NCBI GenBank assembly: GCA_035221665.1
Contig: CM069143.1
Location: forward strand, 45,322,001 to 45,386,000
DNA length: 64,000 nucleotides
Reading direction: 5' to 3'
From: Okamejei kenojei
Taxonomy: Eukaryota
Every line of letters starts with the position of its first letter. Within the stretch, counting starts at the first letter, position 1. This document shows positions 20,471 to 64,000 of the stretch, piece after piece. Position numbers and translations under genes: made by a program. Below the pieces are notes generated by a model, which saw only the letters and a list, made by a program, of their open reading frames with translations, made no database searches and was not told the origin of the DNA.

Positions 20471-21593
20471 ATGCTCGCCTAGATTTTTATACGTCTTCAA
20501 AGCCTATACGCAAACTGATTATGATCAAATAATAACTTATTTTCCATGCACCAAACACAGTTCTCTCAATTATAAATGCCAGATTGTTCAGCAATTATAA
20601 AGCAATTGTTCAGACCGAAAGGTCTGAATGACAAAAATAAAATTCAATTCAATTCAATTCAGATCCAGCTCATGCACAACATCCTTCTTTCTGCTCACAA
20701 TCAGAATATCACATACGACAAGTTCACACTGCTATCAAATGGTGTGGTGCGGTCACCTCAGGTGGTACAGGGCATGGGGTTGTGTTGCTAAGTGGAAATG
20801 TTATTGCTTAGTAACCAGGCAATGGTAGTCTTATAGTCTTCTTCCTAACCAGGTGGCCGACAATTGAAAATTTGAACTAAGATTTTGCTAACTATTTTAC
20901 TTCGGAGTCACGTGAGTGACTACGTGAAGAAGCCCCGCCTGGCGCTGGAACGGCATTACGTCGACGCTGACGGCAGAAGCAAGAGCTGCAGAGGCTAGCT
21001 CGTCGACAGCGGTAGGTACGGAACTGGCAGGTAAGTGCAGTTGAAAAACTTTTAGGGTCTGGAAAACTCCGTGCCTGGTGTATTGAACCAGGATTTAAAA
21101 TGAATTTAAAAACAAAAATAAAATAAAAGATTAAAATAGAACAGAAATACTCTGTATAAAACAACGGAGTTTAAAAAAGAACGTCCCGGGGGAATACCCA
21201 GCGATCGGGATGGGAGATAAATTACGGAGCCGGTTCCGATACTGGTGACCGTTAAAATTACGTTAGGGAGTTTTAGATGCTCCACAAACTTTTGGCAGGG
21301 GGGGAAATTTTAAATAAGTCAGAAAGGCCATAATTTAAAAAAGTTAATAAAGGCCTTCAGACAGAAAATTATGGAAATATTCCCTAACCTACCCTAAGGG
21401 GGTTTCACATATAAAGAGAAAAAAAAAAATATGATGAAATATGATGGGAATATCTACCTCAGATATTTCTGAAGGTAGTCTCCTTGAGGGGAAAAAACTC
21501 AGGAGAAACAAGGGCAGTGAAAAATAAAATGGAAAAACTGACCCTAAAAATGCACTGATAGTGGTGGCTGGTCCTGAAGTACCCACCACAGCA

Positions 21594-21596
<3 letters not shown>

Positions 21597-21641
<45 letters not shown>
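21597..21641. repeat. (TA)n microsatellite inside DIRS
   Basis: Direct reading. Confidence 0.95.
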
Positions 21642-21646
<5 letters not shown>

Positions 21647-22123
21647 GTGAATGCACAACACCTGAATAAGAAGTGAGGCCACGAAAAGTAAACATGGAAA
21701 CTAAAAACTCACCAAAGCTGTAATGATTGAAACAGCGGAATATGATAAAACTTTATGTTTTATAAAGATATCAACGGTGAATCCGTTTATGATATCCATG
21801 TCTCAAATTATATGAGATATAAGGAAATACAATTTCAAAGTATTTCAAACTGGTGCATGGCATTACTATTCAAAAAGAAAAAAATAAAAAAATAAAAAAA
21901 TAATAAAATAAAACGTTGTGCAAATAACTAATATTTTTAAAATAAAATAAATTGCCATCAGTTTGTGGAGCTCAATGGGAAGAAATATATAATATTAATT
22001 ACCAAATCTGCAGTCTAGATTCACAGATTAATACAAATCAGGTTATGTTAAACTCCTGATTATTATGGAATAAACCTGCTTTATGATAAATCAAAGATAT
22101 TGATTACAAAAGAACAGACTACT

Positions 22124-22263
22124 GATCTTTAAACTTTGGGGGAAAAACTATGATCCAATGAAAGATTTGATAATGGATCAAAACAAAGGCAAAGATCTTT
22201 AAACTTTGGGGGAAAAACTATGATCCAAAGAATGATTTGATAATGGATCAAAACCAAGGCAGA
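22124..22263 (+). repeat. 70-bp tandem duplication inside DIRS
   Basis: gatctttaaactttgggggaaaaactatgatcca... starts at 22124 and 22194. Confidence 0.9.
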
Positions 22264-22539
22264 AGTGGTATAATCCAACATAGCCTTATCCAAACCCATA
22301 CAATGGGGAAAGAAGGCTTGAAGTACGTTGAAGAGGTGCAAACATCTTGTTACAAAATAAGTTCATGAGATCTCCAATTGTGGGGGATTACAGGTGTATT
22401 ATGATCATTAATTTAATATAACTAAGAAAGGAATGGTTCACCTGTATAAGAAAACCTTAAAAATTGATTTTAGGTTTGCACTCAAAAGTAACTCCAATAA
22501 AGAAGGGGTACGTACATATATATTATAAAATTACCTCAG

Positions 22540-23880
22540 TGTAAATATTTGATGGTATAAACCATACAAAACATCATTTTATATACACTTTCACAGTGTA
22601 AGAACATTTTATTAAAATGGAAACATCTTGAACATTGAAATACAGTTGCTATTAACAAATTGTTAATCAATATTACAGGTGCTTGAAATTAATTAAAATG
22701 GGTCAAGCTGTGCAAGTTAAAACATTGTCCAAAGGATTAAACCAGTTCAAGGCTGTTAAACAGAATACTGGAAGAACAATTATGCTGATAAAAGATCAGC
22801 ACTTGCACTAATGAGGTCAAGATCATGGGTTATCTTGATTACATTTAAATTGGAAGGTTATAAGAGTCAGCTGCAAATTAGTGCTGCAATTACAAATCTG
22901 TTGGAGGGCAAGGACCTGACCCATTACATAAAGCGTATGCTTAGGCATTAATAAAATATTCATAAATTACTATTCTGAATTTAGAAGTAATTCAGCACCA
23001 TAAGAGGGGGAAAATTGCTCCATGATACAAATATGTCTCGTTGTTGTTGACATACTTTGTCCCTCCATTAGGTTAGGTAAAGAGTAAATAAAGCTCCAAA
23101 AGAAGGAATACAGAAGCTTATAAGAATATGTATGCCTTTGTGAGAGGCTTATGCAAATATCAAATGATACGTTATCATTATTAAAGTAATGTAAAAAAGG
23201 TTCACAAGCTGCTTCAACTATAAGCTTAACAGCTGTTGCAAACTGAAGCAAGTGTTACAGATGATGTACAGCTTCTGTGAATGTTTGGTGATACATTTCT
23301 TGTTGGGACTGCGGACAATAATACCAGGTGAGCATAAATGGATTGTCCTAAAAAATTTTCCAAACATTTGTATTAATTATTGAAGTATAAGGAGTTATGG
23401 ATTAAATATCGATTGTTTTATTATGGAAGTGTCCATGTCATATCAAGGTGAATAATACCACGGCTGTGGCATATGTTAAAACACACAAGATAAGTCAAAT
23501 AATAATCATGGGACTATCTGAGTAAACAGATGTGGCATATTCTAAAGTTTTAGTCCAGCTGTTTATCTCTAAAGAAGAGACAATGGTATCGGAGACAACA
23601 AATTTAGGGAGGAAAACACATTGTCATTAATATGGATTACTTACGATTAATCTGGTTGCATACAGATTAAATCACCGATCTTTCAAATGTTCTTGTGGGT
23701 AAACCAAGTACAGGAAAGGTGGATGCTTTTCTCTCAATCACATGAGGAAAAGATGTTATTTTGTGTTCCTCATTTTGTTGATAGGGCAGTGTCTGATGAA
23801 AATGTAGCAGTACACTGCCAGATGCATTTTGGTGGCCCAATACGGATCCTTCATGGTTTCATTAATATTGAGTGATGTTG
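22540..23880 (+). pseudogene. Degenerate DIRS RT-RNaseH-adenine methylase region
   Basis: HFIKMET (22605-22625), YRCLKLIKMGQAVQVKTLSKGL (about 22674-22739), IMGYLDYI (22822-22845; YLDD remnant), NNTTAVAYVK (23451-23480; DNTTAVAYIN), INLVAYRLNH (23646-23675) and VDAF (23719-23730); many stops and frameshifts. Confidence 0.8.
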
Positions 23881-23917
23881 AACCACTTGTGATGATTCAT
23901 AGTTGCAGTAATTTATT

Positions 23918-24013
23918 AAAGTCTGAGGAAGGGTCTCGACCCGGGGCGTTGCCTGTCTCCTTTCGCTCCTTGGATGCTGCTGCACCCGCTGGGTTCTCCA
24001 GTTTTGTGTAACC
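23918..24013 (+). mobile_element. Penelope pseudo-LTR insert inside DIRS, A-to-G altered
   Basis: Family match; flanked by tgcagtaatt at 23904-23913 and 24015-24024. Confidence 0.8.
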
Positions 24014-24199
24014 CTGCAGTAATTATTGTTGTACAAAGGCATCCATGACATGAGAATATGAATTTGACTATCTGCAGGTTGACCAGACCATTACAACAGT
24101 TTGATGGTCAAAGAAGTCTAGGAATGTTTAACTAATATAACAACATAACAATAAAATAATTATGTATAAAAGAAGTGTTATACCTGCAATTTGCAGAAA

Positions 24200-26071
24200 T
24201 AAGTTTTAAAAAACAATATTTTGTTATAAGAAATTGGAAGTCTGTGTATACAGTAAAGTTATTTTATCATATTAGATATATGTGAGTTCCTTGTGGATTG
24301 CATTTTTCTGAGTATCTAATTGATAGAGCCAATAATAGGGCTCAGAGTGTTACCGTCCTATTAACGGACAATATACTAACCAAGAAGTTATCAGGTGCAT
24401 TCATAATATCCCGATATGGAAAGGGATATATATGTGGATATTAATATAAATATATATATGTGTGTATATACACTTTTGAAAAATATAAAAGTGGATAAGT
24501 CTCCAGGTCCTGACAGGATATTCCCTAGGACATTGAGGGAAGTTAGTGTAGAAATAGCAGGAGCTATGACAGAAATATTTCAAATGTCATTAGAAACGGG
24601 AATAGTGCCGGAGGATTGGCGTACTGCGCATGTTGTTCCATTGTTTAAAAAGGGTTCAAAGAATAAACCTAGCAATTATAGACCTATTAGTTTGACGTCA
24701 GTGGTGGGCAAATTAATGGAAAGGATACTTAGAAATAATATATATAAGCATCTGGATAAACAGGGTCTGATCAGGAAGAGTCAACATGGATTTGTGCCTG
24801 GAAGGTCATGTTTGACAAACCTTCTTGAATTTTTTGAAGCGGTAACTAGGGAAATTGATGAGGGTAAAGCAGTGGATGTTGTCTATATGGATTTCAGTAA
24901 GGCCTTTGACAAGGTTCCCCATGGAAGGTTGGTTAAGAAGGTTCAATCTTTGGGTGTTAATGGCGGAGTAGCAAGATGGATTCAACAGTGCTGAATGGGA
25001 GATGTCAGAGAGTAATGGTGGATGGCTGTTTGTCAGGTTGGAAGCCGGTGACCAGTGGGGTGCCTCAGGGATCTGTGTTGGGTCCACTGTTGTTTGTCAT
25101 GTACATCAATGATCTGGATGATGGGGTGGAAAATTGGATAAGTAAGTATGCAGATGATACTAAGATAGGTGGTGTTGTGGATAATAATGAAGTAGATTTT
25201 CAAAGTCTACAGAGAGATTTGGGCCATTTGGAAAAGTGGGCTGAAAGATGGCAGATGGAGTTTAATGCTGATAAGTGTGAAGTGCTACATCTTGGCAGGA
25301 CAAATCAAAATAGGACGTACATGGTAAATGGTAGGGAATTGAGGAATGCTGTGGAACAGAGGGATCTAGGAATAACTGCGCATAGTTCCCTGAAGGTGGA
25401 ATCGCATGTAGATAGGGTGGTAAAGAAAGCCTTTGGTGTGCTGGCCTTTATAAATCAGAGCATTGAATATAGGAGTAGGGAAGTAATGTTAAAATTGTAC
25501 AAGGCATTGGTAAGACCAATTCTGGAGTATGGTGTACAATTTTGGTCGCCTAGTTATAGGAAGGATGTCAACAAAATAGAGAGAGTACAGAGGAGATTTA
25601 CTAGAATGTTGCCAGGGTTCCAGCAACTATGTTACAGAGAAAGGTTGAACAAGTTAGGTCTTTATTCTTTGGAGCGCAGAAGGTTAAGGGGGGACTTGAT
25701 TGAGGTCTTTAAAAATGATGAAAGGGATAGACAGAGTTGACGTGGATACGTTTTTCCCATTGAGGGTAGGGAAGATTCAAACAAGAGGGCATGACATGAG
25801 AATTAAGGGACAGAGGTTTCGGGGTAACGTGAGGGGGAACTTCTTTACTCAGAGGGTGGTGGCTGTGTGGAATGAGCTTCCAGCAGAAGTGGTGGAGGCA
25901 GGATCGATTTTAACATTTAAGAGTAAAGTGGATAGGTATATGGACGTGAAGGGAATGGAGGGGTATGGTCTGAGTGCAGGTAGATGGGACTAGGGGAAAA
26001 CAAATGGTCGGCACGGACTGGAAGGGCCGAGAGGGCCTGTCTCCGTGCTGTAATTGTAATATGTTATAAGG

Positions 26072-26110
<39 letters not shown>

Positions 26111-26700
26111 CTGTCCAAAATTGTAATATATAAGTCGGGAGATAAATAGTCCTGAATTGCCTTAGGCAATGGACTCTAATTCTATCAATGATTCAAAAAA
26201 AAAAAAAAAAAAGTTAACATTGAAAATAATAATGCTGATGACTTTAGTATCAATATAAGAGTGCAAACATTGCAAATATTACGTTATAATTGCATGTGGA
26301 TACAGATTACATTATCATATATGTTTATGAATATACCAAACAAAGCACACCAAGAAGAGCTGAAACCAAGGTAAACCTATAAGCGTATCTTGTTGGCCTT
26401 AAGTTGTGTGTGTGTGTGTGTGTGAACAATGATGAAATATGTTGAAGTAGGTAAGAGTCTGTGGTAATGAGACAGCACTACTTATTACACACAAAAACCA
26501 CATTAGGTTCAGTAAAAACTGATGGTTCTAGAGGAATGTATTCTAGATGGTTAGAAATTGGATACATTCAGTGGAATTAGACACTGAAAGGTGGAAAATC
26601 ACTCTGTTAATGAGGTAGATACATTCACAGGAATGGCACGGGATGAGCCGCTCGAGCAAAGATGCAAGGCCGCAGGAGGGTGTAAATTAATGTTAAAAGG
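24200..26700 (+). pseudogene. Degenerate DIRS tyrosine recombinase, split by a CR1 insertion
   Basis: ISRY-KGIY remnant (about 24407-24432) before the CR1; VLNCLRQW (26149-26172), KLTLKIIMLMTLVS-RVQTLQIL (26211-26281), SRWL (26542-26553), HSV (26600-26608) after it. Confidence 0.75.
24471..26072 (+). mobile_element. Young 5'-truncated CR1 LINE (RT domain nearly intact, two frameshifts)
   Basis: ORFs 24416-24994, 24976-25740, 25700-25993: NYRPISLTS, DFSKAFDKVPH, SGVPQGSVLGP, KYADDTK; flanked by TA-rich tracts. Confidence 0.95.
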
Positions 26701-26980
26701 AACCAGTCATGGTGTCAGGTTTGGACACACAGTGTTGGGTTCTCTATAATTGTTGCTTTGTCATATCATCAAAATATATATATCAATTGATATTTTGTGA
26801 TAAACTTGCCTTTCAATGGAAAGGGCATTACTTTTATTCTTTATAATGTGAAATAATTTATCACATAACTTGAGGCAATGTTTGGGGAAAAATGTGTTAT
26901 TCGCTCGTTACTGTGTTGAATGAGCCGGACTGTCGTATGGAATAAATTCTACGACATGAAAAACACAGAAAGCTTCAAAC

Positions 26981-27093
26981 TCTTCACGTAGTCACTCACG
27001 TGACTCCGAAGTAAAATAGTAAGATTAAACGAGAACTTACCAGTTCAAAGTTTGATCGTTATTTTATGAGGAGTAACGATGAGGGATTACGTG
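26981..27093 (+). repeat. DIRS internal complementary region (ICR)
   Basis: 26981-27020 = reverse complement of 20891-20930 (40/40); 27021-27093 = reverse complement of 27243-27315 (71/73). Confidence 0.95.
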
Positions 27094-27511
27094 CCCTCCA
27101 CTCCCGACCCTCATAAAATAAATGATCATCTGGTAGTTCTAAATCTAGGTTGAGCCTTACTATCTTACTCCAGCTATTATGTTCTGTGTTTTTCATGCCG
27201 CTGCTTTGAAGTATGCCGTTCCAGCGCCAGGCGGGGCTTCTTCACGTAATCCCTCATCGTTACTCCTCATAAAATAACGATCGAACTTCGAACTGGTAAG
27301 TTCTCGTTTAATCTTACTATTTTAAAAATTGTGCATGAGTACAGGTGACAACAAAACTGTTGATCATTTGTAAAGATCCAACAAGACCACTCGTATTCTT
27401 CGCCCAAACGAGACTAGAATTGGTAACAGCCTGAGGCTGAATATTACAGAGAGTAGGTGTCAGGCGGGTAGCAACAGAGCTTGTGTTGGAGGTATTTTCT
27501 ACACATCCAGC

Positions 27512-40245: not shown

Positions 40246-42678
40246 CTACTGGGTTCCTTTTCTTACTTTCTTTATTGCCCCTTGATTTTTCTTCCGTTTT
40301 GCTATATTCTGTCTTCTTGCTGGGCATTCCTTGTTCCAATGACCTAATTGTGTACAGACGTGACAAGCTTCTTGATTTACAATGTTCTTTGCTCTAAGGG
40401 GTTTTCTTGGGCAGTCATAAGATTGTTTACAATTTTCTTTTATGTAATCTTCAGTTTTTACTATGATAGTACATCCAATTTGTTCATTCTGGTAAATTAC
40501 TCGAGGGGTTTCTAGAGTAGGGGCCAAGTCTCCACATCCACAATTCCTGGACGGGTTGGTAAGTCAGGACTGCGAAAATGGGTTGGTTTGAGTGAACGGT
40601 GTGTGACTTCCGTGTTCCTGACATTCGGGCCATCTCTCTCTCTGTTCTCTCGGTTCCCAGTTGTCCCTTGAATTAAAGGACCTCCCATAATTCCTGGGAT
40701 CTCGGATATTTCTATATTCTCTAGGATCTCTAATTTCTTCATAATCCTGGAAATCCTTTATTTGACCCATCTCTCTCACTCGCTCTTACGTTTGACAGGC
40801 TCGACTCCAGTGTCCCATCGCACCACAAGTGAAGCATTGATTAGGCAATATGGTTGGCTTTATTCTACCCCTTAGTTCCATTCAAATGGGTTCTAAATTG
40901 GGAGTGTAATTGTAATAATAATCTGAGTAATCTGGAACCTTAATTTCTCCCAATCCGTAATTTTCTGGTACTCTGGGGATCCATGGTTCAGACTTAGATT
41001 TTGGCACTTCTTTCTTGGCTATACATTCACTTTCTCTTCTACTTACAGGATAATTTCCTGTTTCTTACCCTTCTTCCATTAGTGCCTCACAGCTTTGGCC
41101 ATTTGACTGGCGCAGTTCCCAGACCTGTCCCTGTTATCGGTCCTAATTAAGTCCGCTACTTTAGTGGGGAGACAATTCAATAAGATAGCACAATACTGTG
41201 GGGAACTTGCTCCATTCTGATAGTCTGTCACCTGATTGGTCCATATATAATTTTGAAAAACAGTCTAAATATTTGTCTGCTCTTTCATTCTCTTCTGGTT
41301 TTATTTCCTGAATTTGTTTTAAATCGCTTGGTTTCTGAAACATTTTTGCAAGGGCCATTAAAACAGCCTCTTCTCTTGCACTGTCAACAATTAATATGTT
41401 TGCCAAGGCTTCATAAGTTGGGTGTCCTAGAGCTACTAGAAATTTGGTATATTCAGCTGGAGTAATTATCTGTTGTATGGTCTCCCACAAATCCTGGGAA
41501 TCTGCGTGATATACACGCATTGTGGTGCTTAAATAATCTATAAAAGCAGCAGGTGACTTCTTCCTATCAGGGATTCTGTTTAGTACTGCCATTATTTCAT
41601 GAGGCTTCCACGGAGTATGGACATCTGTGGCACGGGGATTGTTTATTCTTACCGCGCTGGTCAAATCCGCTGTACCCCGCCCTTCATCTACTGGGAACTG
41701 CCTATGGGATATCTGTTTAATTTGTAAACTTTCAGTTACATCAAAATCTATCTCGGCATCTTCAATCACTGTCTCACCCTCAGATGAATCTTCCCGTTCG
41801 CTAGGCGTTTCCCGATACTGTCCAAATAAATTGTTCCTCTTTCTCACTACTCATGTAATCTATCTAGGTTGTGGCTCACAGAAATACTCTGGCTGTTGCA
41901 CTATATCTAACACACCTTCCCTTTCTTTAAACACCGGAGCTAATCTCTTCGTTCTACTCCGGGTGCCATAAGTCACTGGACGATCTGTCAATGATGGAGT
42001 GGATGGGGTCAAAGAATCTGGTACCCCAGTATCTGCTGTTGGTAGAATCTGCAGGAGTTGTTATAGACCCTGCAGACCTAAAATATTTATTACGGACACG
42101 TCAAACAAAGTGTAGGTGAAGCCTGGGAAACGCAAGAGGAACATTGTGGGAGCTGTGAACTTCCACTGGCATTAACATTTGTCCATTCTTCCCAATATTC
42201 ATCTCCTTCCCTCTCAAAGTCAGCACTAACCATCGGATCCCTAATCTTTAAATTTACAGGGACTAATTTCCTTCCAAGAGACCTGCCTTTTCCTTGTTCC
42301 GTGTGTTTTCCTTCATCTCTACACCTGTCCTTCCTACTGCCTGGAGGTCGATCTGCTTCACCTTCTTTCAGTTCTATTCCAAGTTTAGCGATCGCTTTCT
42401 CCCAACTAGCCATACTCTTAATTTTTTTTATTCACCTTCTGTTCCCCATAATATTTTCTCCATAACCCTATTAATTATTTTGCACTTTTGTTATTACTAT
42501 GCTGCCAAATAATTTGTTCTATGTATTTTATCCATTTTACTGTTCTAATGCCCCCCGGCGGCCATAGCTTCTTTCCTAATTTCTTATTTAATGTTCCTGA
42601 TAAATCTCTTAATTTCTCTGCCTTGTGAGGGAACTCATTGCACATTATTTGCAATGGGCTACTTTCCTCTTCTGTCAT
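40246..42678 (-). pseudogene. gag: ERV gag (fragmented)
   Basis: MA-like ...KKLWPPGG (42475-42678), CA-like TPWKPHEIMAVLNRIPDRKKSP (41161-41847), zinc knuckle CHVCTQLGHWNKEC (in 40246-40527). Confidence 0.85.
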
Positions 42679-63652: not shown

Positions 63653-64000
63653 ATTTCATTTCGGAGTCACGTGAGTGACTTCGTGAAGACCCCGCCAGGC
63701 ACGCATGCGCGACATATCGTCGACCACATGTGAGCGACAGGCAGTGAGGAGCGTTGCTCCTCTACTGCAGGGACCTGCAGGTAAGAAAAACTAATCCGCA
63801 GTCCTTTTTTCATTTCAAGTGACTCTGTTCACAGGGTCTCCAGGCCGCCTCGAATCTGACTGCAGTGGGCAGTCAGCGGCGGCGCCAACAGACTGGAGTC
63901 GGGAAGAGCCCGTTGACCAGAAGGGTCCGGGCTCACACACTCGCCAGCAGAGGCAGCCCGACTCTACACCGCAGCCCGCAGGACACCACGGGCTGGCGGC
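63653..64000 (+). mobile_element. Left end of a second DIRS1-family element (runs off window)
   Basis: ttcggagtcacgtgagtgacttcgtgaagaccccgcc matches the left ITR at 20901-20939; abrupt switch to GC/CpG-rich sequence. Confidence 0.8.

Follow-up and report, generated by a model that had tools for sequence, protein, structure and literature searches.

Can a retrotransposon whose genes have decayed still be copied, and if so, which of its parts must survive? This question is raised by a DIRS1-type element in the skate Okamejei kenojei, lying in a 64,000-nucleotide stretch of GenBank assembly GCA_035221665.1 (contig CM069143.1, positions 45,322,001 to 45,386,000 of the forward strand), referred to here as the window. 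The element runs from ATT to ATT between 20894 and 27321, on the plus strand, as do its parts described below unless otherwise indicated. An earlier note on this DNA had described intact replication signals around a ruined coding region and had proposed a long-lived, non-autonomous lineage that decayed before a recent insertion. Our analysis makes it quite probable that the element belongs to a non-autonomous DIRS1-type family, ∼4.7 kb in size and long-lived, that an intact helper copies in trans.

Element ends and decayed interior

PMC3266345 gives NTT, in most cases ATT, as the trinucleotide at either end of DIRS1-like elements, and the boundaries of the skate element were placed by this rule together with matches between its ends. 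The conserved part of the left inverted terminal repeat (ITR; 20921 to 20956) matches the right ITR (27213 to 27248) at 36 of 36 bases. End comparisons locate the internal complementary region (ICR) at 26981 to 27093, with the circle junction inside it at 27012 to 27020. The left part of the ICR (26981 to 27020) is complementary to the left end of the element (20891 to 20930) at 40 of 40 bases, and the right part (27021 to 27093) corresponds to the right extension (27243 to 27315) at 71 of 73. The right terminus as a whole (27213 to 27324) thus comprises the ITR, the extension up to 27315, and a junction stretch at 27316 to 27324. Both mismatches in the right ICR (27047 and 27053) are CpG-type transitions with the deaminated form on the ICR side, and they are the only differences among 149 paired end bases; the paired segments of the ends and ICR retain 22 CpGs. 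From these two transitions, the present copy is likely to be recent. The matches and the intact CpGs had all been reported in the earlier note and were reproduced here, with a CpG observed/expected ratio of 1.2 to 1.8 at the ends. Without its CR1 and short interspersed element (SINE) inserts, the element measures 4,724 nucleotides, in line with the ∼4.7 kb estimated before.

The ATT at 20894 and that at 27319 both match the circle junction. At this insertion site the match comprises 9 bases (20891 to 20899 and 27316 to 27324) rather than 3, and with this stretch included the element extends from 20891 to 27324. The repeat at the two ends is the junction sequence, which occurs once in the ICR; it is not a true target duplication. 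Base frequencies give the six additional matching bases a chance probability of ∼4e-4 at this one site, and a target preference of the recombinase wider than ATT is therefore possible. The stretch common to both ITRs and both ICR halves is 6 bases when exact and 8 of 9 with one mismatch, where at least 10 is the criterion for DIRS1-like elements.

The coding interior is ruined, as the earlier note had concluded. In DIRS1-like elements, the reverse transcriptase (RT) carries the motif YL/IDD and the tyrosine recombinase (YR) the motif HSTR (PMC3266345, available text). The RT remnant of the skate element (22700 to 22850) reads YLDY at 22831 where YL/IDD is expected, and a TAA stop follows two codons later, at 22846. 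Going by motifs, we take the segment at 23424 to 23915, with NNTTAV at 23451, to hold putative RNase H (RH) and methyltransferase (MT) remnants, and those at 24030 to 24430 and 26110 to 26700 to be the putative N- and C-terminal remnants of the recombinase. HSTR was sought in the recombinase part and is absent from every frame. The order of the remnants along the element is that of DIRS. Across 22500 to 23915, which covers the RT-RH-MT region, the three frames contain 24, 38, and 29 stops in 472 codons, and the minimum number of stops and frameshifts needed to cross the region is 16, compared with 17.7 ± 2.4 in 200 shuffles. The remaining three parts of the interior likewise do no better than shuffled sequence. 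No open gag, RT-RH-MT, or YR frame with YL/IDD and HSTR was found, and since the cis architecture of DIRS1 is present while these coding features are lost, we regard the element as a derivative rather than an autonomous member of the group. The interior also contains a tandem duplication of 70 bases (22124 to 22261; units 96% alike) and a (TA)n microsatellite (21597 to 21641, strand unspecified). The element shows an A skew, limited to its 5′ half, that could be ancestral.

Homology searches returned little from this interior. Six full interior frames matched no Pfam family at an E value of ≤10; one of three additional short frames gave a clathrin match, which was dismissed as chance. Two homologue searches with the RH-MT piece scored none of 155 candidates and none of 16, respectively, and a search of the full protein library gave a single spurious match, to a tandem-repeat protein through 10 weak stretches. 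Exact interior patterns had no match among metagenome and viral contigs, and neither blastn nor tblastn found a second copy of the interior within the window.

Copies of the interior in public sequencing runs

Whether the interior is single-copy had been set beforehand as the test of the proposal, single-copy status implying decay in place. Ten public runs from six studies hold part of 21650 to 24400, and four of these (X4, X5, X9, and X10, with X9 attributed to another organism by its label) were aligned to 21645 to 24900; X1 to X3 and X6 to X8 contribute nothing to the evidence. All 30 bins of this region are covered in all four runs. With the SINE bin excluded, the median summed depth of 25 interior bins is 360,355 in X4, 231,141 in X5, 30 in X9, and 430 in X10, corresponding to 0.13, 0.15, 0.22, and 0.10 of the depth of four bins in the CR1 insert. 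The interior is therefore multi-copy in the four runs, and its other copies are equally dead. Contigs are short, averaging 50 letters in X4 and 84 in X5, and the lowest-depth records listed have depths of 40 to 53 in X4, 34 to 40 in X5, and 3 in X10. If such records represent single loci, and allowing for contig overlap, a hand estimate gives ∼3,600 copies in X4 and ∼4,100 in X5, to be read as roughly thousands since summed depth without a unique-flank baseline is not a copy number.

The copies differ too little to harbor intact genes. Sites at which at least 20% of the depth departs from the present copy number 122 in X4, 120 in X5, 169 in X9, and 189 in X10 out of 3,256 (3.7 to 5.8%). A change of 4% would add ∼2 stops per 472 codons, compared with the at least 16 lesions present, so differences of 4 to 6% are too few to restore the genes. 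Among the 40 substitutions listed out of 260, 36 remain after two in the SINE and two in CR1 are dropped; of these, 7 abolish and 8 introduce a stop triplet in one frame or another, against a background of 184 such triplets. Among the 12 indels listed out of 80, none within 22500 to 23915 is carried by a majority of the X4 depth. In one X10 contig, the stop behind the RT motif is retained and the second aspartate is missing as well. Loss of coding capacity is thus common to many copies, as in a non-autonomous family.

Derived indels segregate among the copies. One-base indels at 23689 (27, 10, 19, and 23% of the depth in X4, X5, X9, and X10, respectively), 23777 (14, 31, 55, and 15%), 24168 (30, 48, 33, and 91%), and 24302 (35, 28, 74, and 83%) occur in all four runs, and a 101-base deletion (23478 to 23580) has a depth of 16,883 in X4 and is also present in X5 and X9. 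Deletion variants of the interior occur at low depth, and the length or packaging constraint suggested earlier is one of the weaker parts of that proposal. A 3′ fragment of a SINE (23918 to 24014), flanked by a target duplication of 13 to 14 bases (23904 to 23917 and 24015 to 24027), is likewise present in some copies of the family and absent from others: in X10, a contig with a depth of 94 runs across the insert, and X4, X5, and X10 all show the joint without it. An X9 record over the SINE has 29 letters on the left side and was excluded from the bridging count. Because shared indels and SINE presence or absence segregate in this way, templates with different frameshifts and inserts must each have been amplified after coding was lost. 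This upholds the earlier claim in so far as copying followed decay. Most of the decay itself was apparently not produced by copying errors over many replication rounds; the genome-level CpG loss, microsatellites, and SINE of the interior suggest that it took place mainly during the genomic residence of source copies between jumps. Strand-biased hypermutation of single-stranded cDNA was considered as a cause and rejected for recent changes, which are strand-symmetric in X4 (23 G>A, 19 C>T, 24 A>G, and 17 T>C).

The CR1 insert has a different history. This 5′-truncated, young CR1-type long interspersed element (24479 to 26072), which contains RVT_1 and is followed by (TA)n at 26073 to 26108, can be crossed with 2 lesions, compared with 18.3 in shuffles. 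Comparison with an X9 CR1 contig shows 2 mismatches over 422 bases, and none of the records listed bridges the border of the insert; on these grounds the idea that CR1 is old cargo of the lineage lacks support. The insert is likely private to the present copy and likely landed after that copy had inserted. As a separate observation, 22 changes distinguish the nested SINE piece from the majority sequence of 12 other SINE copies in the window, and 6 of these changes are A>G, compared with 0 to 3 A>G in each of the other copies. This excess looks like adenosine-to-inosine editing fixed by reverse transcription, a resemblance noticed post hoc in one short piece.

Candidate signals, a proposed route of copying, and its rivals

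CpG content separates the retained parts from the decayed ones. The observed/expected ratio is 1.2 to 1.8 in the termini, ICR, and 5′ leader, 0.0 to 0.38 in the interior, and 0.38 in the whole window. On the left, CpG-rich sequence continues far past the ITR to ∼21265; the resulting leader (20957 to 21265) is A-rich with a GC fraction of 0.385. CpGs are also retained over ∼110 bases upstream of the ICR (26871 to 26980), outside any paired repeat, making this segment another candidate cis signal. A folding scan predicts much stronger structure for the first ∼950 bases, which extend into what was presumably gag, than for the surrounding DNA, in the form of short hairpins with A-rich loops between 20957 and 21895. 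Fold z-scores are −3.75 (20921 to 21300), −3.61 (21280 to 21596), and −4.40 (21645 to 21900). Three of six 150-base windows from 20957 to 21895, a region picked after the scan had been viewed, reach z ≤ −3.8 (two of the six overlap), compared with none of 111 flank windows passing −2.9 and a marginal result for the pol core (P = 0.04). The folded domain is a candidate packaging signal by prediction. An Rfam scan of 20800 to 24500 gave 12 matches, none at the gathering score and most on the TA run.

These parts suggest how the family could move. Transcription would start from the CpG-retaining left end, and helper Gag and RT would take up the RNA through the predicted signal in its folded first 950 bases. 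The ICR would template both cDNA ends, resetting the end matches at each jump, and the helper recombinase would cross the circle junction into a genomic ATT. With promoter, RNA signal, ITRs, and ICR kept, the element could ride on the helper; only cis parts would be under selection, so that the interior would drift neutrally in source copies residing in the germ line, each burst spreading the lesions accumulated by then. The retained parts are likely to mark what such elements need for moving.

Several points weigh against this account. A helper was sought and none was found, the sole other DIRS end in the window being cut off at 64000; what stands of the earlier proposal is a multi-copy, coding-dead family, from which we infer mobilization in trans. 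The protein remnants went unrecognized by Pfam and by three protein searches. The 2 mismatches in 149 paired bases have an upper 95% bound of 4.8%, so that ends younger than the 4% interior difference are only moderately shown. The copy estimate carries the limit given above, and the stop and indel comparisons draw on the parts of the substitutions and indels that were listed. The runs covered the interior only, and the other copies are assumed to be dispersed insertions with ends of their own. Finally, X4 has zero depth with the letter of the present copy at 22013, 22023, 23453, and 23573, for which reason the samples probably lack the present insertion and may derive from a related or sister species.

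Three other histories must be set against helper-driven copying of a long-lived family. In the chief rival, recombination or template switching gave an old copy, already decayed in place, the two end regions of an active DIRS, after which a helper amplified it; the family would be non-autonomous without having been a long-lived mobile lineage. CpG falls sharply from 1.2 observed/expected in the outer parts (up to ∼21265 and again beyond 26871) to the level of the genome in the interior, as such a graft would leave it, and the interior CpG loss resembles long genomic residence. However, the A-rich leader differs from that of the second DIRS, which is GC-rich, predicted folding continues 600 bases beyond the CpG boundary, and the segregation of several indels and the SINE among copies points to several successive sources. 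We consider this history unlikely. Still less probable is that tandem arrays or segmental duplications made the interior abundant and few copies moved as retrotransposons. The short contigs leave room for it: each record covers part of the stretch, and the runs bear on the interior rather than on the ends of other copies. Yet in the present copy the DIRS ends are exact, each with an ATT core, and the DNA around them is ordinary; depth is high over the whole 2.8 kb, which behaves as a unit ending at the CR1 border, and the X9 CR1 contig carries 138 unrelated letters upstream of that border. Inverted repeats can convert each other, and intramolecular conversion might in principle have kept the ends alike in a once-autonomous single copy decaying in place. 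Such a history is contradicted by the highly multi-copy interior, whose other copies are 94 to 96% like the present one and equally dead, and by CpG retention in unpaired parts too; we give it almost no credence. Copying in trans of a long-lived, coding-dead family accordingly remains our reading of the locus.

Two further features of the window deserve mention. A second DIRS family is represented at 63653 to 64000 by a left end that the window truncates, with a terminal motif 34/37 (92%) alike, a different ITR, and a GC- and CpG-rich leader; it is a candidate helper or sister family. A splice-donor-like word occupies the same place in both DIRS leaders (21027 to 21035 and 63777 to 63785), and AATAAA occurs 11 times on the sense strand in the 5′ half of the dead element but is absent from the antisense strand there. 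Given these 11 sites, U1 binding at the splice-donor-like word might shield the transcript from early polyadenylation. On the minus strand, 41161 to 41850 holds a 229-codon open frame with no real Pfam match, which to the eye appears gag-like, of a long terminal repeat (LTR) element.

Relation to known elements

To single the locus out as the strongest candidate for an undescribed system, as the earlier note did, was an overstatement. TOC1 of Chlamydomonas is called an active nonautonomous DIRS retrotransposon (bioRxiv 2022.06.16.496473), and in Dictyostelium DIRS-1 the ICR is essential and the RT acts in trans (PMC7192593). Non-autonomous elements of DIRS order and a trans-acting DIRS RT are therefore already published; what is new here is the folding of the first 950 bases, as a predicted packaging signal, and the 9-base junction match. 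In the portions available, SIRE of Trypanosoma cruzi is a non-autonomous YR retrotransposon derivative (a deletion derivative of ∼430 bases; PMC6681497), DIRS-N1 of zebrafish, known to us by name alone, is a further one (PMC5400779), degenerate Repbase families occur in Xenopus (PMC9210276), and PMC8498967 has nothing on degenerate DIRS families. A literature search uncovered no account of a near full-length, pseudogenized ITR/ICR family at high copy number or of DIRS in skates or sharks, with most subscription journals, Repbase, Dfam, and supplements lying outside the search.

The published model, as given in PMC5633606 and PMC7192593, has a transcript without ends, an ICR that templates the ends on cDNA, and a circle that enters a matching trinucleotide by recombination; for DIRS, according to PMC7192593, a primer is still to be determined. 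How DIRS RNA is recognized and primed is thus an open question that such a family could address: where coding constraint is lost and copying continues, only cis signals would be conserved, and an alignment of copies would map them. We also raise, as a possibility that we rather doubt, that gene-dead, near full-length DIRS families form a major overlooked class of vertebrate parasites of parasites, with thousands of copies, ∼1% of the genome, and invisibility to protein searches, kept long by a folded packaging domain in former gag and a need for cDNA of near-helper size. Because protein searches all missed the interior, annotation would class such families among the unknown repeats, though they may fill megabases. 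If the idea holds, they amount to a natural mutational scan for DIRS packaging and priming signals and for a recombinase target preference beyond 3 bases.

With DIRS1-like elements in general, the skate element shares ITRs, an ICR complementary to the left end and right extension, ATT ends matching the circle junction, the gag-RT-RH-MT-YR order, and a size near 4.7 kb; its short, 36-base conserved ITR recalls the Aplysia elements in Table 3 of PMC3266345. It differs in lacking any open frame, in having YLDY for YL/IDD and no HSTR, in carrying SINE, CR1, and microsatellite inserts, and in the 9 bases, not 3, common to the junction and both ends. SIRE is far shorter than the nearly whole pseudogenized interior found here. 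TOC1, ∼5.7 kb in length, is likewise a long nonautonomous DIRS; it is algal and, going by its description, has split direct repeats in place of the ITR and ICR arrangement of the skate element. Large retrotransposon derivatives (LARDs) of plant LTR retrotransposons are also long, non-coding, and copied in trans. LARDs, however, have direct LTRs with a primer-binding site and polypurine tract and depend on integrase; identity with them was rejected, as the skate element has no long direct terminal repeat and instead combines ITR/ICR ends with recognizable ruins of its genes.

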